Of a stretch of 64,000 nucleotides of DNA, positions 37,213 through 49,667 are shown piece after piece. The notes below the pieces were generated by a model that did no database searches, was not told where the DNA came from, and saw only the letters and a program-made list of their open reading frames with translations. Source of the stretch: Clostridiaceae bacterium (GTDB lineage: Bacteria > Bacillota > Clostridia > DSM-8532). The stretch lies in assembly GCA_012839205.1 (NCBI GenBank), contig DUNT01000050.1, positions 3,965 to 67,964 of the forward strand, written 5' to 3'. Made by a program: the position numbers and the translations under genes. Each line of letters starts with the position of its first letter. The stretch's first letter is position 1.

Positions 37213-37830
37213 TTACTCCAATTCCGGGATATCTAAAATATAATAGCCGGTTGCGTCAATTACCATTGTATCTATGTATTTAACTAAACGCGGGGTTCGT
37301 CCGAACTTGAGGTGCATATGACCGTGGAGGAAATAACGGGGTTTATACTTATCTATCAGCGACACGAAGGACTTGAACCCGGTATGACAGATATCATCCC
37401 CGTCATTGATTCCATAGGCCGGAGCATGGGTAACCAGGATATCAAAGCCTTTTTTTGAATAAAGCTGGTATTTTAGTTTCCTTATTCTTTTAGCCATTTG
37501 TCTTTCAGTATACTGGAACGGCGGAGCTGAATACTTACTATGATAGCCATATTTCATGCTGCCACCTAACCCGAGTATACGAAGACCTTTAAACAAAACC
37601 AGTTTATCTTCGATGCTGTCGCACCCTCCGGGAGGATTGTCAATGTATTCTGTATCATGATTGCCATGTACATAGAATACAGGTGCATGAATCATGCTAG
37701 CAATATAAGAAAGATAGTTGCTTCTCAGGTCTCCACAAGAAATCACAAGATCAATATTCTCAAAATGCTCAGCATCAAAGTGCTCCCAGATGTATTCACT
37801 TTCAGTATCTGACATAATTAATATACGCAT
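37213..37830 (-). CDS. Metallophosphoesterase (calcineurin-like)
   Basis: MRILIMSDTE, SCGDL, VHGNHD and GHMH metal-binding motifs occur in the canonical order. The Met at 37830 is preferred to 37854. Confidence 0.8.
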   Translation of the reverse strand: MRILIMSDTESEYIWEHFDAEHFENIDLVISCGDLRSNYLSYIASMIHAPVFYVHGNHDTEYIDNPPGGCDSIEDKLVLFKGLRILGLGGSMKYGYHSKYSAPPFQYTERQMAKRIRKLKYQLYSKKGFDILVTHAPAYGINDGDDICHTGFKSFVSLIDKYKPRYFLHGHMHLKFGRTPRLVKYIDTMVIDATGYYILDIPELE

Positions 37831-37997
37831 CTGATAACCCCGTTTTAACAACACTGCCCCTTTATGTAGATAGTGGTATTATAATCCATTAGGCAAATAA
37901 TCTCAAGGGAAAAACTTAAAACAATTGATATAAAATGATACAATAGTTATAAAGCAAAAGATTAATTATGCTTATTAGCAATGCCAGGAGCTGGAAT

Positions 37998-38703: not shown

Positions 38704-38737
38704 TCAGCCGGAAGACTTTATTCTTCCGGCTGATTTG
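38704..38737 (+). terminator. Rho-independent terminator after hisE
   Basis: Perfect 12-bp stem TCAGCCGGAAGA-CTTTAT-TCTTCCGGCTGA followed by TTTG. Confidence 0.7.
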
Positions 38738-38790
38738 CATATTTAGGATACAATGAAATAAAAATACTAAAATATCATATAATTATACTA

Positions 38791-38819
38791 TTGTAATAAA
38801 TTCAACAAAATGTTACAAT
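38791..38819 (+). promoter_or_regulatory. Candidate promoter of the kinase/Tad-like operon (TTGTAA-17 nt-TACAAT)
   Basis: -35 at 38791-38796, 17-nt spacer, -10 at 38814-38819, in an AT-rich 250-nt spacer. The leader is about 170 nt. Confidence 0.45.
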
Positions 38820-38989
38820 ACTTTACAGCTACCATTAAAAAGTGAAATTTTGTAAGGATAATTAAGATTTCCCTCATCTTTTGATGGCGGGTAAGGATTA
38901 TTATTGCCAGCAGGATATATCTCCCATTCCGAGTTAACCACCTCACCCGACAGAAATCTTTAATCTTGGTAACTGTTGAGGTTGTCATA

Positions 38990-40414
38990 ATGATAAAAGG
39001 AGATACTATTGCTGAGAAATATAGGATTGTCGAATGTTTGGGCGAGGGAGGCACTTCAGCTGTATATCTTGCAGAAAATATAGCATTAAATAATCTCTGG
39101 GCAATTAAAGTTCTATCTAAAAGCAGCCGCTGGATTTCTTTTGATGTGGATGAAATAGGAATACTAAAAAATCTTAGCCATCCTATGTTACCAAGAATAG
39201 CTGATTTAACAGAGGATTCGGATAATTATTACATAGTTATGGACTACTTTTCGGGCTCAAATTTACTGAAAATAATAGAGTGCCAGGGAAGAATCTCTGA
39301 AAGAACGCTACTTAAATGGACAAAGGATATATTGAATGTACTAAGATATCTTCACAGCAGAACACCCCCTGTAATATACAGGGATTTAAAGCCTGCAAAT
39401 CTGATTGTGGATGACTCAGACCAATTAAGGCTTGTTGATTTTGGTACTGCCAGATACTACTCTGATGAAATATCAGAAGATACGGTCTACATCGGTACTC
39501 AAGGCTATGCGGCACCGGAACAGTATGGAATCGGGCAGACTGATCAGAGAACGGATCTTTACAGCCTGGGCATGACAATTATTCATCTTGCTACAGGAAT
39601 TCATCCTGTAAAGCTAGGTTCGGACAGTATAAGAGATTCACTTAGAAAAGCAGGTATCACACAAAATTTCATACGTTTTGTTTTAAAACTTACACAAACC
39701 GATCCATTAAAAAGGTTTCAGACCTGTGAAAAAGCCATTGAAGAACTGGACAGAATAATGAACCCCGAAAGACAATTTTTAAAGAATTACATTGCGAAAA
39801 AAGCCAAGAAAAACTTCAGGGGAGTAATAGCAATTGCTTCGGTGCTGCCGGCAAGCGGGGTAACAAGTCTGTGCCTTGCCATTGGGAAACACTTGTCAGA
39901 TAACAAAGTCAATTCTGTATTGGTTGAACTTAATTCCAGCGGGGATTTTAACAGAATGAGACAGTACCTGGATGAGCTGGGAGAAGTAAAATATCAAAGT
40001 GATAACCGGTTTGAAACTAATAATCTTATATTCTATCCCAATGCATCAGACTTCGGGGAGGTATCCAGAAAAGGCATCGATGCTGTAATCCTTGATGTTG
40101 GACAACTGAATGCTGAAAGAAAAATCAGCCAATTCAATCATGCTGATATCAGAATCGTTGTGTGTCCGTGTATGCCATGGAAATATGATCTTTTTTCAGA
40201 ATGTAACAAGAATATTGAGTCCTCGACAAAAAATGAATGGATATATGCGGCAAGTGTTACCCAAAGCTATGAAGGACAAAAATTAAAAAAACTTCTGGGC
40301 AGCAATAAACTGGTATTGTATTCCGCTGTTAAAAACCCTTTTTATCTGAGTATAGAAGAGCATAAGCGTATAGGGACTGCGCTTAATAAAATATGTGCAT
40401 TAGCAGGTAAATAG
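38990..40414 (+). CDS. Hanks-type Ser/Thr protein kinase fused to a C-terminal MinD/ParA(TadZ)-like domain lacking a P-loop
   Basis: Kinase motifs occur in order: LGEGGTSAVY, WAIKVL, YRDLKPANL, DFGTAR, GYAAPEQ. The C-terminal ~190 aa (FRGVIAIASVLPASGVTSLCLAIG...IDAVILDVG) has the beta-helix-beta layout of MinD/ParA, but ASGVTS replaces GKGGxGKT. The ATG at 38990 lies 9 nt after GAGG. Confidence 0.8.
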   Translation: MIKGDTIAEKYRIVECLGEGGTSAVYLAENIALNNLWAIKVLSKSSRWISFDVDEIGILKNLSHPMLPRIADLTEDSDNYYIVMDYFSGSNLLKIIECQGRISERTLLKWTKDILNVLRYLHSRTPPVIYRDLKPANLIVDDSDQLRLVDFGTARYYSDEISEDTVYIGTQGYAAPEQYGIGQTDQRTDLYSLGMTIIHLATGIHPVKLGSDSIRDSLRKAGITQNFIRFVLKLTQTDPLKRFQTCEKAIEELDRIMNPERQFLKNYIAKKAKKNFRGVIAIASVLPASGVTSLCLAIGKHLSDNKVNSVLVELNSSGDFNRMRQYLDELGEVKYQSDNRFETNNLIFYPNASDFGEVSRKGIDAVILDVGQLNAERKISQFNHADIRIVVCPCMPWKYDLFSECNKNIESSTKNEWIYAASVTQSYEGQKLKKLLGSNKLVLYSAVKNPFYLSIEEHKRIGTALNKICALAGK

Positions 40415-40435
40415 TAAGTGTGAGGAGGTAAAAAG

Positions 40436-41368
40436 GTGATTCTAAGGCCACAACGTTATAGGATCCTACTGGGTTTTCTGGCGGGTCTTTCGCTTTCTGT
40501 AATTATTATAGGGGCAAGCTATCTTTACTATAGGAATAATACATACCAGCTGGCTGAACAAGAGAAGCTTGAAATCAGACGAATGGCAGTGGAAGAATAC
40601 ATACAAAACAATCCTACAAGTCTGGTATATACAGTTACAACAGATAAAAAGTCAGGAGAGGTTTTACTGGATAAAGATATTGCTCCTGCCGAAATAAATG
40701 CAGGCCTTATACCGGCCGATGCTGTTACTGATCCTTCTTTAGCTGTTGGTAAGGTAATAAGATGCAGTATTATGTCTAATACGATAATAACCGAATCTCT
40801 TATGTATGAAAAGCAGGATTATCCACATGATATGAGACTTATGGAATACTCGGTTTTGAACCTTCCACAAAAGCTTCAAAAATTTGAATTCATCGATATC
40901 AGAATCATGTTTCCAAATGGCCTGGATTATATTGTTCTTTCCAAAAAGCAGGTTACTGATTTAGAAAGATTGGAAGAAAACCAAAAAAACACAATATGGT
41001 TCCATGCCGGTGAGGAGGAAATACTCAGGATGGCCAGTGCTATTGTTGACGCAAGTATCGTAGAGGGTACTGTCCTGTATGCGGTACCGTATATAGCGCC
41101 GGAAATTCAGGATGAGGCAGTCAGAACATACCCGGTAAACCCCGGGGTGCAAAAACTGATTTTGGAAGACCCCAACATTATCAACAAAGCCGTGACAGAG
41201 CTGGAATCCCGCAATCGTGAATTGTTTGAGAAAAGAATTAACGAAGACTACCAGTATGCCGGGAGGAATAAAGTATTTGCTGAGAACAATAATGCAATTT
41301 CACCTGATGATTTTGAGAGTAAAGATATTGATTTGGTAACAGAGGCGAGTGTAGAAGATAATCTTTAG
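40436..41368 (+). CDS. CpaB/RcpC-like SAF-domain pilus assembly protein
   Basis: 310 aa with a GTG start after GGAGG and one N-terminal TM helix. A SAF-like segment follows (VYTVTTDKKSGEVLLDKDIAPAEINAGLIPADAVTDPSLAVGKVIRCSIMSNTIITESL), as in Flp-pilus CpaB proteins. Confidence 0.6.
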   Translation: MILRPQRYRILLGFLAGLSLSVIIIGASYLYYRNNTYQLAEQEKLEIRRMAVEEYIQNNPTSLVYTVTTDKKSGEVLLDKDIAPAEINAGLIPADAVTDPSLAVGKVIRCSIMSNTIITESLMYEKQDYPHDMRLMEYSVLNLPQKLQKFEFIDIRIMFPNGLDYIVLSKKQVTDLERLEENQKNTIWFHAGEEEILRMASAIVDASIVEGTVLYAVPYIAPEIQDEAVRTYPVNPGVQKLILEDPNIINKAVTELESRNRELFEKRINEDYQYAGRNKVFAENNNAISPDDFESKDIDLVTEASVEDNL

Positions 41369-41378
41369 GAGGTATTAA

Positions 41379-42026
41379 ATGAATGTAGTATTTCTGGGAG
41401 AGAGTACAGAGGCAAAACGGTTTTTAATATTATGCCTTGCTAAAATCGCATCATGCTATGCAAATATTACTGTATTATCCAAGAAACCATACTCATATGG
41501 TGAAATCACCGATGAATATGAGTATTGCGGGATTGATTTTGTACTGCTTAAAGATGGGGAAAACCCTCTGTCAAAGATTTCAGAGTCTGCCGGTAATTTT
41601 GTGGACGCAGAAGAATATATAGATGTCCCGGAGGATTTTAAGGTAATAGCAGTAAGTGAAACAACCAGAGATAAACTTGAAAGTTGCATAGAATTAGCCG
41701 GGGAGTATACCCGGTGTCATCCATCCTTAAATCTCTATATTGTCTACCTGAATATAATGGAGTACTGTAGAATTGGAAAACGATTCTTAAGCAGTTTCTG
41801 GGAGCATAGCTTACCTAGTACTATTGAGATTGCTGGTACTGATGAAATATACTTTGAAGAAAAAAACCATATTGTTATGATAGAAAGTCAGTATTTGAAC
41901 AGATTATCCATCAGAAGTTTGTCATTACCCATCAAAACAGTATTCAGGAATATAATCCTGTATATTTTTTCTTTAGACACCAAAGAAGTAAAAGCAGTGT
42001 TTAAAAGAGCTGAAAGGATGAAATAG
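41379..42026 (+). CDS. Hypothetical protein, possible P-loop-less MinD/TadZ-like module
   Basis: 215 aa behind an AGGAGG RBS. It starts with beta-strand/helix/beta-strand (VVFLGESTEAKRFLILCLAKIASCYANITVLS) but has no Walker A. Confidence 0.4.
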   Translation: MNVVFLGESTEAKRFLILCLAKIASCYANITVLSKKPYSYGEITDEYEYCGIDFVLLKDGENPLSKISESAGNFVDAEEYIDVPEDFKVIAVSETTRDKLESCIELAGEYTRCHPSLNLYIVYLNIMEYCRIGKRFLSSFWEHSLPSTIEIAGTDEIYFEEKNHIVMIESQYLNRLSIRSLSLPIKTVFRNIILYIFSLDTKEVKAVFKRAERMK

Positions 42027-42027
42027 G

Positions 42028-42837
42028 ATGCAGGTTGCGTTCTGGTCAAATATGCACGGGCAAGGTGCCACAAGCGCTGCAACTGCAGCGGTTGCTTCTG
42101 TCATTGCGCAAAAAACAGCATTAAGAACCCTGATTGCTCATAACCAAATTGAAAAAAGTGCCATAGAAGGCTACTTGTTTAAAGAACCAAAGCAGCATAA
42201 CAGTATCAGAAACTTAAACAATCAGGGTATTGACGCACTTTTAAGACTGGTTAAAAACGGAAGACTCAAAACGGAGATGATTGCAGACTACACATATTCT
42301 ATCCTGAGAAATCATCGGATGGACTTGCTTTTGGGGACTGAGAAAAAACAAAAAATGACACAGGAAGATCAGGAGCTTTTTTTAAGTATACTCAGCTTTG
42401 CAAAAGAATTTTATGATCTCATAATACTGGACGTCCACAGCGGTCTAAAAGAGAATAATAGTTTGAGCCTCCTTAAAAGTTCGGACATAATAGTGTTTTG
42501 TATTAATCAGAACAGTTGTTTGCTGGATGATTTAGCCGGTATTTTTCATGAGCATGAGTTCCTGAAACAAAAGCAAGCAGCATTCGTTTTAGCGCGATAC
42601 GAAAAACATAGTGGCATAACAGGCGCAAGTATTGCGAGAAGGTATGGAATAAAGAAAAAATCTGTTTTTAAAATACCTAATTGTGCCCATTTAATGGATG
42701 CCTTGAACTCCGGAAGAGTATATGAATATGTTGCCTTTAATCACAATACAAAAAGAGGCGAAGAAAAAGAGGTGCTCGGCTCTTTAAACCGGCTCTGTGA
42801 GTATATTATTGAGGGGTGCGATAAAAATTGCCGCTGA
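42028..42837 (+). CDS. TadZ/CpaE-like MinD/ParA-fold protein with degenerate Walker A
   Basis: 269 aa. VAFWSNMHGQGATSAATAAVASVIA occupies the deviant-Walker-A position, and YDLIILDVHSG occupies the Walker-B position. It sits immediately upstream of the CpaF-like ATPase, as in Tad loci. Confidence 0.6.
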   Translation: MQVAFWSNMHGQGATSAATAAVASVIAQKTALRTLIAHNQIEKSAIEGYLFKEPKQHNSIRNLNNQGIDALLRLVKNGRLKTEMIADYTYSILRNHRMDLLLGTEKKQKMTQEDQELFLSILSFAKEFYDLIILDVHSGLKENNSLSLLKSSDIIVFCINQNSCLLDDLAGIFHEHEFLKQKQAAFVLARYEKHSGITGASIARRYGIKKKSVFKIPNCAHLMDALNSGRVYEYVAFNHNTKRGEEKEVLGSLNRLCEYIIEGCDKNCR

Positions 42838-44702
42838 TGATGAACCTGATAATAATTATATTAATATTGTTTGGTCTGGGTATATCCCTGTACTTTTTCT
42901 TTGTTTCAAGAAAGTATTACAGAGAGACAGTGGAAAGAGAAGATCCCCAGAAGTACACAATTCCTGGTCTTATAGAATATGTTAAGGATTGTATTAATGA
43001 GATAACAAGAACAAATCTATTCGAGCTTGGTCTCAGTGAAGTGGAGTTTAAAAAGCAAACCAACCAAAGAGCCGAACTGAAGAAAGCTCTCAAAGTATGC
43101 ATGCATGGCTCCATAGTGGATAAGCAGTTTGTCAAGGCTTTTATCTATGATATTCTGCATGCTTATATTCCAAATGAGAAAACCAATTCAATTATCCCTT
43201 TTAATAACCCATACCTTCTTTCAACAAAGGATAAGTTTGCAATTCTGATTTACATGACAAAAAAGGAACATGGAGCCAATGCCCTTTCGTATCTGATTGA
43301 TACCTTTCAACTGGACAGGCTTAAGAAAAACGAAAATGGAGAGTATTCCTATTATATATCCAAACAAGAAATCAATGATATCTATAACAGAATGGACTTA
43401 ATTCTTACAGGGGAAGACAAACTTGAGATCATCACCCAAACTGTATATGAACAGTACAAAGGGTTAGGTGTCATAGATGAAATCAGGGATATGAATATTG
43501 ACGGGGTTTCTGCCGGGGTTTCAGGGGTACCCGAAGACTTCATCGAATTCTCAGATTTTAGGGAGCATATCAATGGAGTTAACCGCCACGAAAAAAACTA
43601 TGAAAGTATTTGGCTTTTTTATAAAGGAAAATCCATAAAACTTGATTTTATAGGTTTCGAAAGCGAAAGTGAGCTAAAAAGAGTTTGTCAGATAATATAC
43701 CGCTACAATCGGGGAGGTCAGCTTTCGGAGGCTACCGGCTACAGAGTCAACGAGATGAAGGACGGAAGCCGTATTTTGGTTGTTAGGCCACCGTTTTCTG
43801 AATCATGGGCATTCTTTGTCCGCAAATTTTATATTAAAAACGTAACGCTGGAAACGCTTATACAAGATGAAAACGCTTATTTGCCTATTAATCTGATCAA
43901 ATACATCGTAAAGGGCGGTATGATTACTGCTGTAACAGGGCAGCAAGGAAGCGGGAAAACCACAATGCTTATGGCTATGATTGAACATATTTATGCCACA
44001 TTAACTCTTCGTATTCAGGAAATGGCCTTTGAACTTAATCTCAGAAAACTATATCCCAGAAGAAATATTCTGTCCTTCAGAGAAACCGAAACAATTTCAG
44101 GACAAATGGGTCTTGATATTCAGAAAAAGACAGATGGCAGCGTAAACATACTTGGTGAAGTGGCCACCGACCCGGTGGCGGCATGGATGATACAAATGTC
44201 TCAGGTGGCTTCGTTATTTACCCTCTTTACCCATCATGCCAAAACCACGCGGGATCTGGTTTATTCGCTTAGAAACTCATTATTAAAATGCGAGATGTTT
44301 AATAATGAGAAAATAGCTGAACAGCAGGTAGTATCGGTTTTAGATTTTGACATACATCTTGCAAGAGACTATGAAGGTAATAGATATATTGAACGCATCA
44401 CTGAGATAGTAGAGCTTCCGGACATACCTCTGCCTGGTGATTTTGTCTATAAAATTAATCTCAGCGAAAAAACAGCTTCTTTCATGGAAACCACTGCTGA
44501 GTATTATAACAAGATGACTGACAAGAAAATCTTTGAGTGTCGTAATATTATTGAGTTCAGAAATGGACAATATGTTGCGGTTAATCCTGTTACAGAAGAA
44601 AGAGCAGAGCAAATGAAACGGGCAATGACAAGGAAAGATGCTCAGCAATTCGATGATTATATGTATAAGTATTTTAGCCTGCAAAGTGAGGTGAGAGTAT
44701 GA
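42828..44702 (+). CDS. CpaF/TadA-like (T2SS-E/VirB11 superfamily) secretion ATPase with N-terminal TM anchor
   Basis: 624 aa. The N-terminus LIIIILILFGLGISLYFFFV is hydrophobic. YKGLGVIDEIRDMNIDGVSAG aligns with the CpaF GLGPLEPLL...DImVNG block. Walker A is GQQGSGKTT, the Walker-B region is ILGEV, and the His-box-like segment is FTLFTHHAKT. Confidence 0.8.
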   Translation: MPLMMNLIIIILILFGLGISLYFFFVSRKYYRETVEREDPQKYTIPGLIEYVKDCINEITRTNLFELGLSEVEFKKQTNQRAELKKALKVCMHGSIVDKQFVKAFIYDILHAYIPNEKTNSIIPFNNPYLLSTKDKFAILIYMTKKEHGANALSYLIDTFQLDRLKKNENGEYSYYISKQEINDIYNRMDLILTGEDKLEIITQTVYEQYKGLGVIDEIRDMNIDGVSAGVSGVPEDFIEFSDFREHINGVNRHEKNYESIWLFYKGKSIKLDFIGFESESELKRVCQIIYRYNRGGQLSEATGYRVNEMKDGSRILVVRPPFSESWAFFVRKFYIKNVTLETLIQDENAYLPINLIKYIVKGGMITAVTGQQGSGKTTMLMAMIEHIYATLTLRIQEMAFELNLRKLYPRRNILSFRETETISGQMGLDIQKKTDGSVNILGEVATDPVAAWMIQMSQVASLFTLFTHHAKTTRDLVYSLRNSLLKCEMFNNEKIAEQQVVSVLDFDIHLARDYEGNRYIERITEIVELPDIPLPGDFVYKINLSEKTASFMETTAEYYNKMTDKKIFECRNIIEFRNGQYVAVNPVTEERAEQMKRAMTRKDAQQFDDYMYKYFSLQSEVRV

Positions 44703-46732
44703 ATACATATGTCATAATCGGAGTGTCTTGCCTCTGTCTTGCGTTTATATTGATAATAGTAAACCTGGTTTATACAAAGAAAAGAAATAATTTGGGGGAA
44801 AACTTAAGACAGGCAGGAAAAAGGTATTTAACATTCTATATTTCACTGTATCGCAGATTCAGCAGGATTCCCATATTGAAAAAGCTCTTGCTGAATATCA
44901 GAAAAAGACTTGAAATATATACTGTTTCTGATGAAAGCAATATCAGAAAGACAACGGTTATTCTTCTTCTGCTTTCGGCTGCAGCGTATATATCCATTGT
45001 AATTGTTTTCTGGATTCTTACCCGGGACTTGCTGATTTTAATTCTGTTTGCAATACTTTTGTCTTTTATCGGAGACACAATAATAGAACTGTTTATAAGT
45101 AATCTCCAGGACAAGCTGCTCCGGCAGCAGATTAAATATCTGGAGCTTTTGAGACATAAATACTATGAGCAAAAATCTGTCGAAGATGCCAATCTGGAGG
45201 CATGTAACCTGCTGAACAGGGAAGGAACTTTTGAAGTTTATACTCAGGCAGAGCGGATAAATGACATTCTTTTTTCCAAAGATGTGGAAGAGGAGCTGGA
45301 GAAATATTACGAAACAGCCCCCAATAAATATTTTAAGATGCTGGCAGGTATAATCTTCATTACCAAGGAATATGGAGACACCTTTGTAAAGGATAGTTCT
45401 GTTTTTATCAGGTGCATAACATATCTTGGCAGCGAAATCAAAGCTGAATTGTATAAACGGGAAAAACTGAAATACGCTTTAAAGAGCCTGACCACCATAT
45501 CTCTTCTTCCCCTGTTCTTCTTAAAACCCTTAAGAAATTGGGCATCAGGAAGTTTCGCACCCCTGGAATCCTTTTATTCCAGCAGAATGGGCATTATCCT
45601 GGGCATGGCAACAATATTGACCTCAATCGTTTGCTATATGGTTTTAAGAAGGCTGCAGCGTTTTGATAATCATATAAGTACCGGATTTGTAAAAAAATCG
45701 TTTGAAGAACGGTTATATAAAAAATTTCTGCATTCTGCAGTGGACAGGCTGGTACCAAGACAGTATTCAAAGCAGTCACAATATTTGACAGAACTTATTA
45801 AAAACGCTATGGCACCTGTTAATATATATACACTGTATGTACGAAGACTTTTTATTGGTTTCATAGGGTTTGTTTTTGGTATTTTCATGTTTTTGGGGTT
45901 AAATGCATACACCAGATATTCGATTCTTTATTTGCCTCAAATGCCGGAAGGTTATCTGGGAGGGCAACTTTCAGCCCAAGAATACGAAAGGCTTAAAAGC
46001 ATCACAGATTTTGACAGGAAAATCATTCTGAGCTTAGGCAAAAACCTGAATGAGGATTTGGTACTGGAGAAATTGGATGAAAACCAACAATTGAATAGAC
46101 AGGAAGTAACAGCTGCTCATGAAAGAATCAATAAAAAAATTCATATGCTTTCCAATAATATATTCTGGTGGTGGCAGCTTATTATATGCTTCTTGTTTTT
46201 TATTGCAGGATATTGGGTTCCAATCATCAGTCTTGTTATTATGGCAAAGGCAAGAAGAATAGATATGGAAGATGAAGTATCTCAGTTTCAGACAATTATC
46301 CTTATGTTAATGCATATGAACAGGATTCACGTTCAGGAAATTCTGGAGTGGATGGAAGCCTTTTCAGTCCATTTTAAAGAACCCTTACAAAAATGTATCT
46401 TGAATTTCAGCTCGGGGCCGTATGAGGCACTGGAAGAGCTTAAAGCGGAAGTTGGGTTTTCTCCTTTTCTGGCTATAATAGACAATCTTCAGCTGGCCGC
46501 TGCAGACCTGGAGGTGGCAAAGGCCTTTGAAGAGCTGGAAAACGAGATGAGTTTTAATCGTGAAAGTCGTAAAGACACAAATGAAAGAATAGTGGAGAGA
46601 AAGAAAAACCTGGGTAATATTATAGGCTTTTTGCCAGCATATATGCTGATTATCCTATACCTTATAATCCCAATGATAGTATCGGGGATGAATAGTATTT
46701 CAGCATTTTATAAACAAATAATGCAAATATAA
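44699..46732 (+). CDS. Polytopic membrane protein, fused TadB/TadC-like (GspF/T2SS-F type) platform
   Basis: 677 aa with several TM clusters separated by two long helical cytoplasmic regions. The C-terminal third (FQTIILMLMH...EALEELKAEVGFSPFLAIIDNLQLA...NLGNIIGFLPAYMLIILYLIIPMI) follows the T2SS-F repeat pattern. ATGA overlap with the ATPase gene. Confidence 0.6.
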   Translation: MNTYVIIGVSCLCLAFILIIVNLVYTKKRNNLGENLRQAGKRYLTFYISLYRRFSRIPILKKLLLNIRKRLEIYTVSDESNIRKTTVILLLLSAAAYISIVIVFWILTRDLLILILFAILLSFIGDTIIELFISNLQDKLLRQQIKYLELLRHKYYEQKSVEDANLEACNLLNREGTFEVYTQAERINDILFSKDVEEELEKYYETAPNKYFKMLAGIIFITKEYGDTFVKDSSVFIRCITYLGSEIKAELYKREKLKYALKSLTTISLLPLFFLKPLRNWASGSFAPLESFYSSRMGIILGMATILTSIVCYMVLRRLQRFDNHISTGFVKKSFEERLYKKFLHSAVDRLVPRQYSKQSQYLTELIKNAMAPVNIYTLYVRRLFIGFIGFVFGIFMFLGLNAYTRYSILYLPQMPEGYLGGQLSAQEYERLKSITDFDRKIILSLGKNLNEDLVLEKLDENQQLNRQEVTAAHERINKKIHMLSNNIFWWWQLIICFLFFIAGYWVPIISLVIMAKARRIDMEDEVSQFQTIILMLMHMNRIHVQEILEWMEAFSVHFKEPLQKCILNFSSGPYEALEELKAEVGFSPFLAIIDNLQLAAADLEVAKAFEELENEMSFNRESRKDTNERIVERKKNLGNIIGFLPAYMLIILYLIIPMIVSGMNSISAFYKQIMQI

Positions 46733-46756
46733 ACCATGAATGCAGGAGGTAAAGCT

Positions 46757-47335
46757 ATGGAAGGCAATTTGTCTAAAGCACTTTGGCTGGGAGTCTCAAT
46801 TCTCCTTTTTATTGCAGTTGTAACTGTAGGGCTGAGTATTTTCGGAGGAATGAAAGAAGTGAGCAATCTGGCCAATGATCGTATTGGGTCCATATCCCAA
46901 AGCATGGCAGAGGAAGAATTCAGAATATATGACGGAAAGGAAGTAAGAGGGGATGATGTCCTTTCAGCACTGGGAACTTTTGGCGGCAGAAGCGGTGAAG
47001 TAATCGTCTTTGTGGCAACCTTGGGCTCCAATGGCGGAAATCCCGTAAATTTAAATCTTTCTACAGGCACCGGGTTAAACAGTTCCAGCTATAACCAATA
47101 CATTTCAAAAACAACAGGTACACTGAGGACAGACAATAAATGTGTAATACTGTCAGTAAACAGCGGCGAACTTCTGTCAAGCGTCAGTAAGACTGTTATG
47201 GATGCGGAAAGAAGGGACTGTGAGAATCCCAATCTTACATCCAAATATATCAATCCCTCCGGAAAATTTATGTCCCATTTAGTTTACGATACAAACTTAA
47301 AAATTCGTGGTGTAATCTTTGCACAAAAGGACTAA
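46757..47335 (+). CDS. Putative pilin-like protein (short polar N-terminus plus one hydrophobic helix)
   Basis: The ATG at 46757 lies 7 nt after AGGAGG. The N-terminus is MEGNLSKALWLGVSILLFIAVVTVGLSIFGG, followed by a ~160-aa Ser/Gly/Asn-rich soluble part. Confidence 0.5.
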   Translation: MEGNLSKALWLGVSILLFIAVVTVGLSIFGGMKEVSNLANDRIGSISQSMAEEEFRIYDGKEVRGDDVLSALGTFGGRSGEVIVFVATLGSNGGNPVNLNLSTGTGLNSSSYNQYISKTTGTLRTDNKCVILSVNSGELLSSVSKTVMDAERRDCENPNLTSKYINPSGKFMSHLVYDTNLKIRGVIFAQKD

Positions 47336-47337
47336 TT

Positions 47338-47760
47338 ATGAGTGGTAATATTGAAAAAATATTATATCTGGGTTTAGCAGTTGTTTTACTTGGGATGGCT
47401 TTTACATTTTTCTTTTCCGGCTATAACAACTACCGGGATTATATTACAAAAAGCAATATAATTATTAATGATGACAGGATGGTAGCTATTACAGAGGGGA
47501 AGGATAAGTCTGTAATAAACGGGACAGAGGTTATACATCAGGTGCTTGAATTCCAAAAACTTGAGCAAAATAATCAACTGCTTGATTTTTATTCGGATTT
47601 AACTGAATCTCCGTATCAAAGCCAAGCTGAAATATGGGTTTCCGGAATATATGCAATTGATATTAAAACATCAGATGTAGACGCTGCTTCCCTCTATGGT
47701 ATTGTATTTGAAAAAGACAATTCGGGACAAATAATAAAAGTCCAGTATAGCTTAAAGTAG
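47338..47760 (+). CDS. Putative pilin-like protein, N-terminal paralogue of the preceding gene
   Basis: 140 aa. The N-terminus MSGNIEKILYLGLAVVLLGMAFTFFF shares the pattern M-x-G-N-[LI]-x-K-x-L-[WY]-L-G with the previous ORF. Confidence 0.5.
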   Translation: MSGNIEKILYLGLAVVLLGMAFTFFFSGYNNYRDYITKSNIIINDDRMVAITEGKDKSVINGTEVIHQVLEFQKLEQNNQLLDFYSDLTESPYQSQAEIWVSGIYAIDIKTSDVDAASLYGIVFEKDNSGQIIKVQYSLK

Positions 47761-47773
47761 AAAAGGAGAGGAC

Positions 47774-48328
47774 ATGGACAGAGCTTTTTGGAAGGTACTG
47801 GCGTTTTTATTATGTGCTGTTTTAATGTTTTTGCTTCCTTTAATGACCATTTTGGACAGGCAGGATGATATTGCCTACAATATAGTTCTGACAGAGTGTA
47901 ACAGATTTGTCGATGCCTGCAGGGATACAGGGTATATAACACCGGGCATGTATTCTGAGTTTACGAATCGCATCAGATCAACGGGGAACACTTACAGTAT
48001 AAAACTGTCACATATAAAAAGGTCGGTAAGTCCGGTCTATAAACAGATTAACGGAGTTTTGGACTTCACGGGTGAATATGAAATAACCCATATAAACTAT
48101 GGCGAACATGACATATTGGGAGTCTTGTATCCAAATAATCCGGTGCAGTCAGAACATGATAAATCAAGACGCTATGATATGAGTATGGGCGACCTTCTTT
48201 TTGTCGAAGTTCAGAACAATGGCAAGACAATGGCAACAGCAATTCGTGACATGATGATGTTCAGGAATACTGATTATCCTGCTATATTTGTTCGTTCTGG
48301 AGGGATGATAAGAAATGAGGCTTACTAG
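47774..48328 (+). CDS. Hypothetical protein with N-terminal TM/signal-anchor helix (minor-pilin/TadE-like candidate)
   Basis: 184 aa behind an AGGAGAGG RBS. N-terminus MDRAFWKVLAFLLCAVLMFLLPLMTIL. Confidence 0.4.
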   Translation: MDRAFWKVLAFLLCAVLMFLLPLMTILDRQDDIAYNIVLTECNRFVDACRDTGYITPGMYSEFTNRIRSTGNTYSIKLSHIKRSVSPVYKQINGVLDFTGEYEITHINYGEHDILGVLYPNNPVQSEHDKSRRYDMSMGDLLFVEVQNNGKTMATAIRDMMMFRNTDYPAIFVRSGGMIRNEAY

Positions 48329-49316
48329 TTTAGCAATTACCTTCCTGATTATCGTTTCTCCCTTTATTTATATAAGTGCACAGGAAACTGAAGTTGCCAT
48401 ACAAGACCAAAGACTGAGGTATTATTACGACAATATAATAGATAACGCTGTTGCAGATGCTGCATTTATTCTTTCAAACAAGGGTACAGATTTTACATAT
48501 ACAGGTAATGTAAACATATCAGATGCCAGAAAACTTGCCGCTGAGGCCTTCTTTGATTCTGTATACTATTCATTCAATGCTAAGGGCAATCAATCTTTAA
48601 TGGCTCGGGTGGATGCCTGCATACCGGTTCTTGTTTTTTTGGAAAGTGAAGGCTTTTCTCTATACGTTCTTGATGAATATAAAAACATAAATGGACAAAA
48701 TGAGATCAAACATCTGTGGTTTCCTGTGCAACACTATATCGGAGAAGTTATATCCGACAGATTTGTTATTCGCTATACTCTTGAAAACAAAGTTTATGTA
48801 TTTGATATAATAGAACAGACTTTGATGGAAGGCGATTACAGCGAATTTAGAGATATAATTCCTTTCTTTAAAGAGAAGCAGGATTTTGAAAATCTACGAA
48901 TAACAGCTATAAAGAACTCTGTTGTAGAAAAGATTATGGCATATATGAATTATTATAATCAGTGGGCATTGGGGAAAAGTCTCTCTGTTAAGTTGGAATT
49001 CCCATCCATAGAAGATGCAGACTGGAAAAGAGCTCTTACAGATGAGGGTATAATGGTCTTTACTCAGGGATTTCCTGTCCTTTCAGGCAAAAACTATAAG
49101 CACTATGCTCTGGGGGCAGCAAGGGTTATAAGAAAAGCGCCCTTAACAGGTTATACTTACCAGGGGGTATTATATTATTGCCGAACAGATTGTGCCCACT
49201 TACAAAATACTGTTATTTCGGATATAGGCTTCAACCAGGATAGCATGACTTACTTTTCTAATGCATATGAGGCGGCTGCCAGCGGGTATTTTCCCTGTCC
49301 CTTCTGCCGCCCGTAA
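48315..49316 (+). CDS. Hypothetical protein with N-terminal TM helix and C-terminal Cys4 (Ada-like zinc-binding) motif
   Basis: 333 aa. N-terminus LTSLAITFLIIVSPFIYI. The C-terminus is YYCRTDCAHL...x29...GYFPCPFCRP. A 14-nt overlap with the preceding gene. Confidence 0.45.
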   Translation: MRLTSLAITFLIIVSPFIYISAQETEVAIQDQRLRYYYDNIIDNAVADAAFILSNKGTDFTYTGNVNISDARKLAAEAFFDSVYYSFNAKGNQSLMARVDACIPVLVFLESEGFSLYVLDEYKNINGQNEIKHLWFPVQHYIGEVISDRFVIRYTLENKVYVFDIIEQTLMEGDYSEFRDIIPFFKEKQDFENLRITAIKNSVVEKIMAYMNYYNQWALGKSLSVKLEFPSIEDADWKRALTDEGIMVFTQGFPVLSGKNYKHYALGAARVIRKAPLTGYTYQGVLYYCRTDCAHLQNTVISDIGFNQDSMTYFSNAYEAAASGYFPCPFCRP

Positions 49317-49362
49317 TAAGCAAAAGCATACTTGTATGTTGGCAGGAGTTAATCCATATTCT

Positions 49363-49520
49363 AAGAATAATGCGAGCAAAGATGTCATTCTGAAGGTCGC
49401 GAAGCGAAATGAAGAATCTTATGCGTTGACGTTTAAGATCCTTCGCTGACGCTCAGGATGACAATAACGTGATGTGAGAGATGGGATGTGAGAAGTGAGA
49501 TGTTTGCTCGTATTATTCTT
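49363..49520. repeat. 158-bp MITE/REP-like element with 18-bp terminal inverted repeats and nested internal inverted repeats
   Basis: AAGAATAATGCGAGCAAA (49363-49380) pairs with TTTGCTCGTATTATTCTT (49503-49520) at 17/18 positions. Inner arms are TGTCATTCTGA / TCAGGATGACA. There are short GATGTGAGA-like direct repeats. No coding capacity. Confidence 0.65.
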
Positions 49521-49667
49521 AATATGAGCTTTGCGAATATCAAGAAAGTTGCCGCCGCGGCAGCAAGGCAATTTTCTTAAAATACGAGTAACTAAAATAA
49601 TATTATTAATTTTATTTTGAGAAAATGGGTAATAAATAGGTAAACATAAATAAAGGAGGTTAGAGTT

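Follow-up and report, generated by a model that had tools for sequence, protein, structure and literature searches.

A kinase-headed operon encoding a predicted Tad-related filament machinery in Clostridia

What kind of machine is encoded by a ten-gene operon that contains several recognisable parts of a Tad pilus and lacks others? The question is raised by genes g1 to g10 (Table 1), which lie on the plus strand of a 64,000-nucleotide stretch of contig DUNT01000050.1 from a Clostridiaceae bacterium (hereafter, the window). In an earlier sequence-only reading, the locus had been proposed to be an undescribed Tad/CpaF-like type IV filament-type operon of atypical composition, headed by a Ser/Thr kinase. 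The relationship to Tad was supported by our analysis, in which a CpaF-clade ATPase, a SAF/CpaB protein and a remote TadB/TadC-like platform were found; Flp pilin, TadE domain, local TadV and a match to the T2SSF model were absent from the locus. Because some Tad features were present and others were not, the system was placed as a Tad/type IV filament (T4F) variant outside the canonical family. We consider it probable that the operon encodes a filament machinery of the Tad (type IVc) kind, from a divergent branch specific to Bacillota, and that this machinery would build an adhesive filament under the control of a kinase switch. The word "undescribed" held only in part: an in silico description of the nine-gene core already exists from TANB77, an uncultured gut order (PMC11680825), whereas the kinase-headed form is not in that description.

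Table 1 Features of the operon and its borders in the window.
Feature	Coordinates	Strand	Length	Basis
g1, Hanks-type Ser/Thr kinase with a C-terminal degenerate ParA/MinD-like domain	38990..40414	+	474 aa	Pkinase match, profile alignment
g2, bitopic CpaB/RcpC-like protein, SAF domain and one N-terminal transmembrane helix	40436..41368	+	310 aa	Pfam, transmembrane prediction
g3, small TadZ-like protein of remote ParA/MinD type	41379..42026	+	215 aa	family-wide Pfam matches, PDB profile
g4, CpaE/TadZ-like protein of ParA/MinD type	42028..42837	+	269 aa	family-wide Pfam matches
g5, CpaF/TadA-type secretion ATPase with N-terminal transmembrane anchor	42828..44702	+	624 aa	PDB profile, motifs, transmembrane prediction
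g6, polytopic platform, two TadB/TadC-like halves in one chain	44699..46732	+	677 aa	profile-profile alignment, transmembrane layout
g7, candidate major pilin-like subunit, N-terminus MEGNLSKALWLGVSILLFIAVV	46757..47335	+	192 aa	AlphaFold2 model, N-terminal signature
g8, second pilin-like subunit, N-terminus MSGNIEKILYLGLAVVLL	47338..47760	+	140 aa	homology to g7 N-terminus
g9, conserved bitopic protein (LLMFLLPLM...RQDD)	47774..48328	+	184 aa	conservation
g10, conserved bitopic protein	48315..49316	+	333 aa	conservation
Hairpin after hisE, CAGCCGGAAGA...TCTTCCGGCTG	38705..38736	+		read directly from sequence
Sigma-70-like promoter candidate, TTGTAA-17-TACAAT with TG extension	38791..38819	+		pattern match
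Palindromic element downstream of g10, 26-nt inverted repeats at both ends	49362..49521	.	160 nt

Components of the operon

An open reading frame (ORF) survey of the window located the ten genes within 38966-49316. With the best-supported starts, the junctions from g1 to g10 were +21, +10, +1, -1 (or -10), -4, +24, +2, +13, and -14 nt, which agreed with the overlaps and gaps noted previously. Shine-Dalgarno-like sequences were found 5' of g1 (ATG 38990), g2, g3, g6, g7 (46757), g9, and g10. The ATG at 38990 is the most likely start of g1, with GAGG 8 nt upstream and an equivalent start in the orthologues. For g7, AGGAGG precedes 46757, which was preferred to 46736, and the 82 homologues found, which start with MEGN or MDGN, have lengths of up to about 192 aa; the start of g5 is ambiguous between TTG 42828 and ATG 42837. 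The ORF layout, the Shine-Dalgarno sites, and the overlaps fit a single operon, and the ten genes form one. The GC content of the operon was 0.379, compared with 0.403 in the rest of the window, and GC at third codon positions (GC3) was inside the range of the other genes. A compositional island was therefore ruled out, so that the "atypical composition" applies to the set of components but not to the nucleotides; the parts list alone is unusual.

The only significant relatives of the g5 product in PDB were CpaF structures (sequence E 6e-12; profile E 9e-13 over residues 265-544), and a PilT structure was matched at just 0.037. The Walker A motif GQQGSGKTT, the catalytic Glu of LGEVA, and the two His of FTHHAKT were invariant across the family. 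An archaeal affinity of g5 was rejected, since CpaF alone and no archaeal FlaI or GspE structure was matched in PDB. Residues 1-264 comprise a transmembrane (TM) helix at residues 8-26 and a conserved, family-specific domain of about 230 aa that is expected to be cytoplasmic. With Pfam T2SSE (PF00437), g5 scored 16.6 bits, under the cutoff of 24.9, and all NCBIfam models stayed far under their cutoffs, the best being TIGR03819 (the "conjugal transfer-associated" TadA family, 1.4e-8). These results identify g5 as a CpaF-clade ATPase whose catalytic motifs are intact and whose own N-terminal helix is predicted to anchor it in the membrane, as had been claimed for both the CpaF/TadA likeness and the anchor.

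A pattern scan of GTDB species genomes with peptide signatures of the ATPase confirmed at least 547 stretches that encode a relative of g5. All presence and synteny counts given here come from 80 loci that were fetched.

The proposed 677-aa TadB/TadC-like platform stood at the level of profile-profile comparison but not in the sequence tests with Pfam and PDB. When 137 sequences of the g6 family were aligned by hhalign with 13 canonical TadB/TadC proteins taken from annotated plasmid Tad loci, the N-terminal half (residues 43-249) matched TadB/TadC columns 66-273 with 79.6% probability (E 1.5e-5), and the C-terminal half (residues 491-658) matched columns 139-312 with 60% probability (E 8.5e-5). 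With just 5 canonical sequences the comparison was not significant, significance being reached with deep alignments only. The TM layout of each half resembles that of TadB/TadC, namely a TM helix and then a TM pair, followed by some 120 aa of helical domain and more TM helices, and the AlphaFold2 (AF2) model was all-helical with a predicted local distance difference test score (pLDDT) of 79. An internal duplication, examined by hhalign of one half against the other, was not significant. Exhaustive searching with a hidden Markov model (HMM) at E<=1e-3 returned about 1,058 representatives of the family at 50% identity, and the majority of the matches listed were full-length, of about 600-700 aa. 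We accept g6 as two putative TadB/TadC-like modules fused in one chain, in the sense of remote homology, and not as a recognisable member of PF00482.

As previously noticed, g7, g8, g9, and g10 each carry one N-terminal hydrophobic helix. In the AF2 model of g7 (pLDDT 82), a helix of 54 residues (residues 3-56) is followed by a small globular alpha/beta head, so that the modelled shape is the general "lollipop" shape of type IV pilins. The N-terminal 41 residues of g8 were homologous to g7 (hhalign 94% probability, E 1.2e-7), and the remainder was poorly conserved. This common N-terminus, M-x-N-A-x-K-A-L followed by the hydrophobic helix, was found in 189 genes of 74 related loci, at 1-5 copies per locus, and reads M-[E/G/S/D]-N(97%)-A(80%)-x-K(67%)-A(95%)-L(95%)-x-[M/I/L]-A-[G/A]-[G/A/S]-[V/I]-L, with the Met 2-3 residues ahead of the invariant Asn. 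ORF, regular-expression, and signature checks found no Flp-sized pilin, prepilin peptidase, or G/xxxxE motif in the locus, in line with the sequence-only reading; Flp-type pilins (about 50-80 aa, G/XXXXEY) differ in size from the pilin-like proteins here (140-192 aa). The small proteins thus lack a canonical processing motif, but they do possess a conserved N-terminal signature of a non-canonical kind. The K-A-L of the signature is a possible archaeal-style class III cleavage site, with the cut between A and L (basic -2, small -1), although strong conservation ahead of this point would be odd in a leader peptide.

The remaining two subunits, g9 and g10, belong to separate families that are better conserved than g7 and g8. 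Homologues of g9 were present in 72 of the 80 loci, gut clade included, with near-invariant P22, D31, F45, G53, G71, G139, and D140, and g9 itself had no Pfam match; the protein may be a minor pilin or an assembly factor. Homologues of g10 were found in 46 loci, with invariant P230, W237, Q251, and G252. Its C-terminal four-Cys motif YYCRTDC...YFPCPFCRP was kept in the clostridial relatives sampled and reduced to two Cys in Paenibacillaceae; g10 showed a weak match to Ada_Zn_binding (E 0.0014), and the motif may be a zinc knuckle or an extracytoplasmic disulfide pair. Since they are better conserved and have many invariant residues, g9 and g10 fit the core or the minor components of a machine better than a fibre subunit that varies.

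The g2 protein, predicted to be CpaB-like, matched SAF (PF08666) at 29.7 bits against a Pfam cutoff of 21 and has a TM helix at residues 10-28, so the CpaB-like SAF assignment was upheld. Its score with TIGR03177 (pilus_cpaB) was 16 bits, under the NCBIfam cutoff of 71, and weak matches to CpaB and FlgA were also obtained. Homologues of g2 occur in 75 of the 80 loci.

Single-protein searches gave no Pfam match for the g3 of the window and no significant match for g4. Across the families, AAA_31 was matched by 3 of 15 members for g3 and by 6 of 15 for g4 (best E 1.8e-5), CbiA was matched by 1 of 15 and 3 of 15, respectively, and the family profiles matched ParA and MinD structures weakly (MinD in PDB at E 0.017 for g3). 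The g3 family HMM was present in 76 of the 80 loci and the g4 family in all 80. These weak but recurrent signals are compatible with the MinD/ParA (TadZ)-like assignment. The deviant Walker A motif KGGxGK[ST] is degenerate in both proteins, as GESTEAKRF in g3 and HGQGATS in g4, and the corresponding position in the C-terminal domain of g1 reads PASGVTS; in all three there is no lysine at either position, as had been stated for the three MinD-like modules. Both g3 and g4 are too short for the receiver-like N-terminal domain of TadZ/CpaE. On remote homology, they appear to be TadZ/CpaE-like proteins of ParA/MinD fold lacking a functional-looking P-loop. The g4 homologues of the gut clade (loci L035-L077) keep a GKT P-loop, e.g. 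REQTGKTLS, and the P-loop lysine is lost both in the window's clade (HGQGATS) and in Paenibacillaceae (GQAGTTS). Hence the g4 module may be an active ATPase in the gut clade and a pseudo-enzyme in the other clades.

The first gene of the operon was confirmed as a Hanks kinase integrated in it. The kinase domain of g1 (about residues 10-260) matched Pkinase (PF00069) with 156.7 bits against a Pfam cutoff of 31.7 (E 1e-45), and it contains the Gly-rich loop GEGGTSAVY, WAIKV (the VAIK Lys), YRDLKPAN, DFG, and AAPE. The catalytic motifs were kept in all but 2 of 16 kinase-domain orthologues, and by these motifs g1 is predicted to be catalytically intact. The C-terminal domain (residues 285-482) matched the g4 family by hhalign with 79-83% probability (E about 1e-5, best 8.5e-6) and Soj/ParA (1wcv) with E 0.0019. 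A fusion of kinase and ParA-like C-terminal domain was the first gene in 22 of the 80 loci, in both Clostridia and Bacilli: the window's clade, 9 Paenibacillaceae genomes, and 1 metagenome-assembled genome (MAG) of Bacillota. The fusion pattern across loci and the homology between the C-terminal domain and g4 argue that this domain is a docking adaptor for the machine, with the kinase as its payload.

Relation to described systems and distribution

Full-text literature searches found one description of this architecture (PMC11680825), and reviews of type IV pili (T4P) in monoderms and of Tad systems do not mention it. In that study (Kim et al., Nat Commun 2024), a putative pilus cluster of 10-14 genes was reported in 95% of the species of TANB77 (PMC11680825). 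With AF2 and Foldseek, its proteins were called as CpaB, TadZ, CpaE, TadA with one TM helix, a TadC+TadB fusion with eight TM helices, and seven pilin-like proteins with one TM helix (PMC11680825). Reported sizes were 358 aa for the CpaB-like protein, 231 and 280 aa for two COG1192 ParA-like proteins, 640 aa for TadA/CpaF, and 693 aa for TadC+TadB (PMC11680825). The window has the same order and similar sizes, with 310, 215, 269, 624, 677, 192, 140, 184, and 333 aa for g2 to g10. Furthermore, the gut loci L035-L077 show the same layout and are homologous to g2, g4, g5, g6, g9, and g10 of the window, the HRGM proteins of the published cluster being compared by description.

Differences were also evident. 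The TANB77 cluster contains no kinase gene, whereas g1 heads the operon of the window; it has 5-7 pilin-like genes against two (g7 and g8); its last protein is of 621 aa against 333 aa, and g10 probably corresponds to the N-terminal part of the TANB77 "pilin 938"; and the P-loop kept by the g4 homologue of the gut clade is lost in g4 of the window. We therefore interpret the operon, on homology and gene order, as a TANB77-type system in another order of Clostridia with a kinase added. The cluster was claimed to be exclusive to TANB77 among gut species, and its proteins except the ATPase to have no or few homologues outside TANB77 (PMC11680825). Our profile searches detected the g2, g3, g4, g6, g9, and g10 families in Paenibacillaceae, Tumebacillus, Thermoclostridium, and Acetivibrionales, and the latter statement thus appears to hold only for a search of gut genomes at the sensitivity used in that paper.

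Like the canonical Tad systems of Aggregatibacter (tad), Caulobacter (cpa), and the monoderm Bifidobacterium breve, the operon has a single ATPase of the CpaF/TadA clade, two platform modules of TadB/TadC type, and a SAF-domain CpaB/RcpC protein, and it encodes putative ParA-like TadZ/CpaE proteins. It differs in that the platform modules are fused and have diverged past recognition by Pfam, a TM anchor and a novel N-terminal domain are part of the ATPase, Flp pilin (G/XXXXEY) and the TadE/TadF domain are missing, the TadZ-like proteins, at 215 and 269 aa, are short and have neither a receiver-like domain nor a P-loop lysine, and a kinase is located inside the operon. In B. breve, the prepilin peptidase of the Tad system is encoded outside the locus (PMC6916266).

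A further comparison was made with the Kil system of Myxococcus xanthus, a Tad-like apparatus with forkhead-associated (FHA) domain proteins, one FHA domain being fused to the ATPase KilF (PMC8460266). Both systems are Tad-derived, have many lineage-specific components of unknown function, and show signs of Ser/Thr-phospho signalling in the machine. However, Kil belongs to a diderm and uses a secretin and a canonical Flp-type pilin, its phospho link is made by FHA readers of phospho-peptides and that of the window by a kinase fusion, and the sequence relationship is limited to the Tad core. In Sulfolobus, the Hanks kinases ArnC and ArnD control the archaellum/pilus, a type IV filament machine, via the transcription regulators ArnA and ArnB; neither kinase is known to be fused to a machine-scaffold domain, and homology to g1 is expected only in the kinase fold. 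Other candidates were set aside: the T4P of Paenibacillus thiaminolyticus is a canonical PilB/PilT/PilC type IVa pilus on a mobile element and unrelated (PMC9765702), a paper on variants of the type VII secretion system that mentions TadZ is unrelated (PMC11217815), and a Bulleidia locus is a canonical tad locus (PMC12786226). A spoIIIA-like sporulation channel was judged unlikely by gene number and sizes.

Synteny in related genomes, proposed earlier as a check, bore out the unity of the locus. The order g2-g3-g4-g5-g6-pilin-like-g9-g10 was kept in about 70 of the 80 independent loci, in two classes of Bacillota (Clostridia and Bacilli), and is therefore not due to chance. Carriers near the window are Acetivibrionales and MAGs of "Ruminiclostridium" and Clostridiaceae; others are Thermoclostridium caenicola, Tumebacillus, Effusibacillus, many gut Clostridia MAGs, and about 30 Paenibacillaceae genomes of Paenibacillus, Cohnella, and Saccharibacillus. 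The system is a large, widespread family of Bacillota and not peculiar to the window genome.

Some clusters are plasmid-borne, e.g. in Cohnella herbarum, Paenibacillus sp. Cedars, and Clostridium argentinense. In the RefSeq annotation of the Cohnella plasmid, only the SAF protein and "TadA" are named, the other seven proteins being hypothetical. The proteins flanking the cluster on this plasmid (NZ_CP051681) were 92-100% identical in six other loci, those of Paenibacillus sp. 1P07SE, P. mellifer, P. provencensis, Cohnella sp. REN36, and two MAGs. On the same plasmid parA/parB lie upstream of the cluster, and a ParA-like ORF is also located upstream in locus L016. The pattern resembles a recent horizontal spread, in which the entire cluster moved on a plasmid-like element.

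In 21-23 Paenibacillaceae loci, the Cohnella plasmid and loci L013 and L016 among them, a pair of large proteins with signal peptides is encoded directly 3' of the g10 homologue. The pair consists of a copper-amine-oxidase N-domain protein of about 370 aa and a DUF5704 protein of 1,100-1,270 aa, at times with a DUF916 protein before the latter. It may be cargo or a machine-linked adhesin, and it is absent from the window.

A model of the machine and its alternatives

From these homologies, motifs, architecture, and conservation we infer a filament, its function, the processing of its subunits, and the target of its kinase as follows. The membrane-tethered g5 hexamer would drive the single-chain double platform g6, which would lift g7 out of the membrane together with minor or tip subunits (g8, perhaps also g9 and g10). 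The subunits would polymerise to a thin filament across the monoderm wall, where a secretin is not needed, and g2 would serve as an extracytoplasmic guide or collar. The g3 and g4 proteins could form a nucleotide-independent scaffold or position the motor, and the ParA-like domain of the g1 kinase may dock on this scaffold, where g3 or g4 would be its probable partner; the kinase could then switch assembly on or off by phosphorylating a component of the machine. Any processing of the subunits would need a peptidase from outside the locus, or else their very short N-terminus (M-x before the invariant Asn) could remain uncleaved. Adhesion or surface colonisation is the most likely function, and it is the weakest link of the model. 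The independent AF2/Foldseek annotation of the same architecture in TANB77 agrees with the Tad assignment (PMC11680825).

Several results weigh against this model. For the platform, no Pfam match, T2SSF (PF00482) included, was obtained in 18 diverse members of the g6 family; the family profile had no match in PDB; an HMM of canonical TadB/TadC (T2SSF) recovered no ORF of the g6 family even at E<=10; and the AF2 model had no Foldseek match below E 0.1 in PDB, which contains few full-length platform proteins. The one positive test of the platform was hhalign, at 60-80% probability. For the subunits, the AF2 model of g7 matched no solved pilin significantly (none below E 0.1 by Foldseek against PDB), the pilin-like proteins carry no Gly(-1)/Glu(+5) class III signal, g7-g10 and 10 diverse members of their families had no Pfam pilin match, and hhalign of g7-g10 against a small reference set of 6 canonical TadE/TadG proteins was not significant. 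A regular-expression search for an A24 peptidase (a multi-TM ORF with a GxGD-type motif) found none in the window, and none up to 10 kb from the ATPase gene in the 80 loci. In addition, the degenerate P-loops of the g1 C-terminal domain, g3, and g4 leave their activity doubtful, and that the machine is regulated by phosphorylation, and with what target and effect, is something we purely infer. The TANB77 evidence is in silico together with the immunology of one recombinant protein, and includes neither microscopy, electron microscopy among it, nor genetics of the machine (PMC11680825).

The apparatus might be Tad-derived and yet make no adhesive pilus, forming instead a short pseudopilus for export through the wall, as in type II secretion, or for DNA uptake. 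Tad-dependent transformation is documented in a monoderm, for the Flp/Tad system of Micrococcus luteus (PMC6916266), but no comEA/comEC-like genes were seen adjoining the clusters. The large signal-peptide proteins 3' of the Paenibacillaceae clusters could be exported cargo; in the window, however, no cargo gene follows, the next gene being thioredoxin-reductase-like after 350 nt. The conservation of g9 and g10 beyond that of g7 and g8 is as expected of a machine over a variable fibre, whereas the 3-5 paralogous pilin-like genes of the gut-clade loci are a better fit to an exposed, diversifying fibre. On balance we regard a pseudopilus as unlikely and retain the adhesive filament.

A separate alternative concerns g1 alone, which could be an independent signalling or anti-phage kinase (PD-T4-6/Stk-like) located upstream by chance. 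Its kinase domain indeed strongly matched the generic defence-kinase models of PADLOC (mad6, 5e-51; PD-T4-6, 4e-46) and a phage kinase family of PHROGs, but these matches span only the generic kinase domain (residues 6-273), and a defence or phage origin was rejected on this basis. The kinase is absent from 58 of the 80 related loci, including all those of the gut clade. Where it is present, the same fusion lies directly upstream of the CpaB-like gene in Clostridia and Paenibacillaceae, even though the kinase-headed loci outside the window's clade share just about 26-35% identity with g4 of the window; the C-terminal domain is homologous to a member of the operon; and g1 is separated from g2 by 21 nt with no terminator between. 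Three loci have the C-terminal domain with another N-terminus or none in place of the kinase, which points to an adaptor of the machine. A chance neighbour is thus quite improbable, and the kinase switch is kept in the model of an adhesive filament.

Least probable is that there is no filament at all and the CpaF-like ATPase was recruited to another membrane complex, e.g. a plasmid-linked transfer or partition apparatus or a transporter, with the single-TM proteins as accessories: the Paenibacillaceae cluster on a plasmid beside parA/parB with near-identical copies across genera, the best NCBIfam match of g5 (TIGR03819, far under cutoff), and the small proteins that match no known pilin family would fit it. 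Against it, the locus has an ordinary composition and a chromosomal position in the window and its relatives, with synteny between hisIE and housekeeping genes, the Cohnella plasmid is non-mobilizable by MOB typing with no relaxase or VirB4/VirD4 gene nearby, and the CpaF-like ATPase, double TadB/TadC-like platform, SAF/CpaB, ParA-like proteins, and helix-plus-head subunits make up a Tad parts list.

A bolder proposal, which we consider possible but doubtful, is that the family is a distinct, unnamed class of type IV filament confined to Bacillota, with subunits lacking a cleavable class III leader, a self-anchored CpaF motor, a single-chain double platform, and, in a subset of lineages, a Hanks kinase plugged into the ParA-like scaffold to gate assembly post-translationally. 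Subunits without a cleavable leader are suggested because the conserved Asn lies 2-3 residues past the initiator Met and no dedicated peptidase was found near the loci by regular expression. If true, the system would be unprecedented among T4F on two counts: its independence of a prepilin peptidase and its built-in eukaryotic-like Ser/Thr kinase switch. Type IV filaments are regarded as well catalogued, but the standard models miss this branch, and it is carried by cellulolytic clades of anaerobic digesters, soil Paenibacillaceae, and the gut order TANB77, one "pilin" of whose cluster has been linked to immunotherapy response. Cultivable carriers (Thermoclostridium caenicola, Tumebacillus, and many Paenibacillus) open the TANB77 "pilus" to experiment. 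General questions on T4F could also be addressed with them, namely how motor and platform cohere without PilMNO, whether leader cleavage and Glu5 are universal, and how Ser/Thr phosphorylation switches a machine.

Boundaries of the operon and flanking features

Upstream of the operon lie hisI and hisE (PRA-CH and PRA-PH), followed by a hairpin (Table 1) that likely terminates the upstream unit and marks the 5' border of the operon. The hairpin claimed as a strong terminator is thus present, but a terminator scan did not list it, its tail being insufficiently T-rich. The promoter proposed upstream of g1 was found as claimed, and the stretch 38768-38831 that holds it showed 86-88% identity in three related MAGs.

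Downstream, the 350-nt spacer between g10 and the thioredoxin-reductase-like gene contains the palindromic element, whose terminal inverted repeats are 88% complementary and which has an internal imperfect palindrome, GTCATTCTGAAGG...CCTTCGCTGACGCTCAGGATGAC. It had been described as a repeat like a miniature inverted-repeat transposable element; the inverted repeats were confirmed, but the element is single-copy within the window. Its core was found at the same intergenic position in two related loci, in one with 84% identity in reverse orientation (L001) and in the other as 30 nt with 100% identity (L003). The element could be the terminator of the operon, or a small mobile or invertible element.

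A gene for a calcineurin-like metallophosphoesterase (37213-37854, minus strand) is located about 1.1 kb upstream of g1 and is syntenic in 7 related loci (62-77% identity). That it is the partner phosphatase of the g1 kinase would be pure speculation.

Two observations were made in other genomes. In a Bacillota MAG (locus L033, 1-5765), part of a canonical T2SSF ORF (L033:9-329, TadB/TadC HMM match at E 2.8e-5) and an ORF with a canonical TadE-like N-terminus, LEFALLIPTLM (L033:3461-4237), lie immediately upstream of a kinase-headed cluster; therefore, a canonical Tad locus and the divergent system can adjoin. On the Clostridium botulinum plasmid pRSJ2_3 (locus L086, 5425-8850), a shorter ATPase (468 aa) of the T2SS/T4P/T4SS (type II secretion, type IV pilus, and type IV secretion) family shares about 27% identity with g5. 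Two "hypothetical" proteins (298 and 359 aa) are encoded after it, along with several tiny ORFs, and the region may be another unannotated Tad-like variant on plasmids of the botulinum group.

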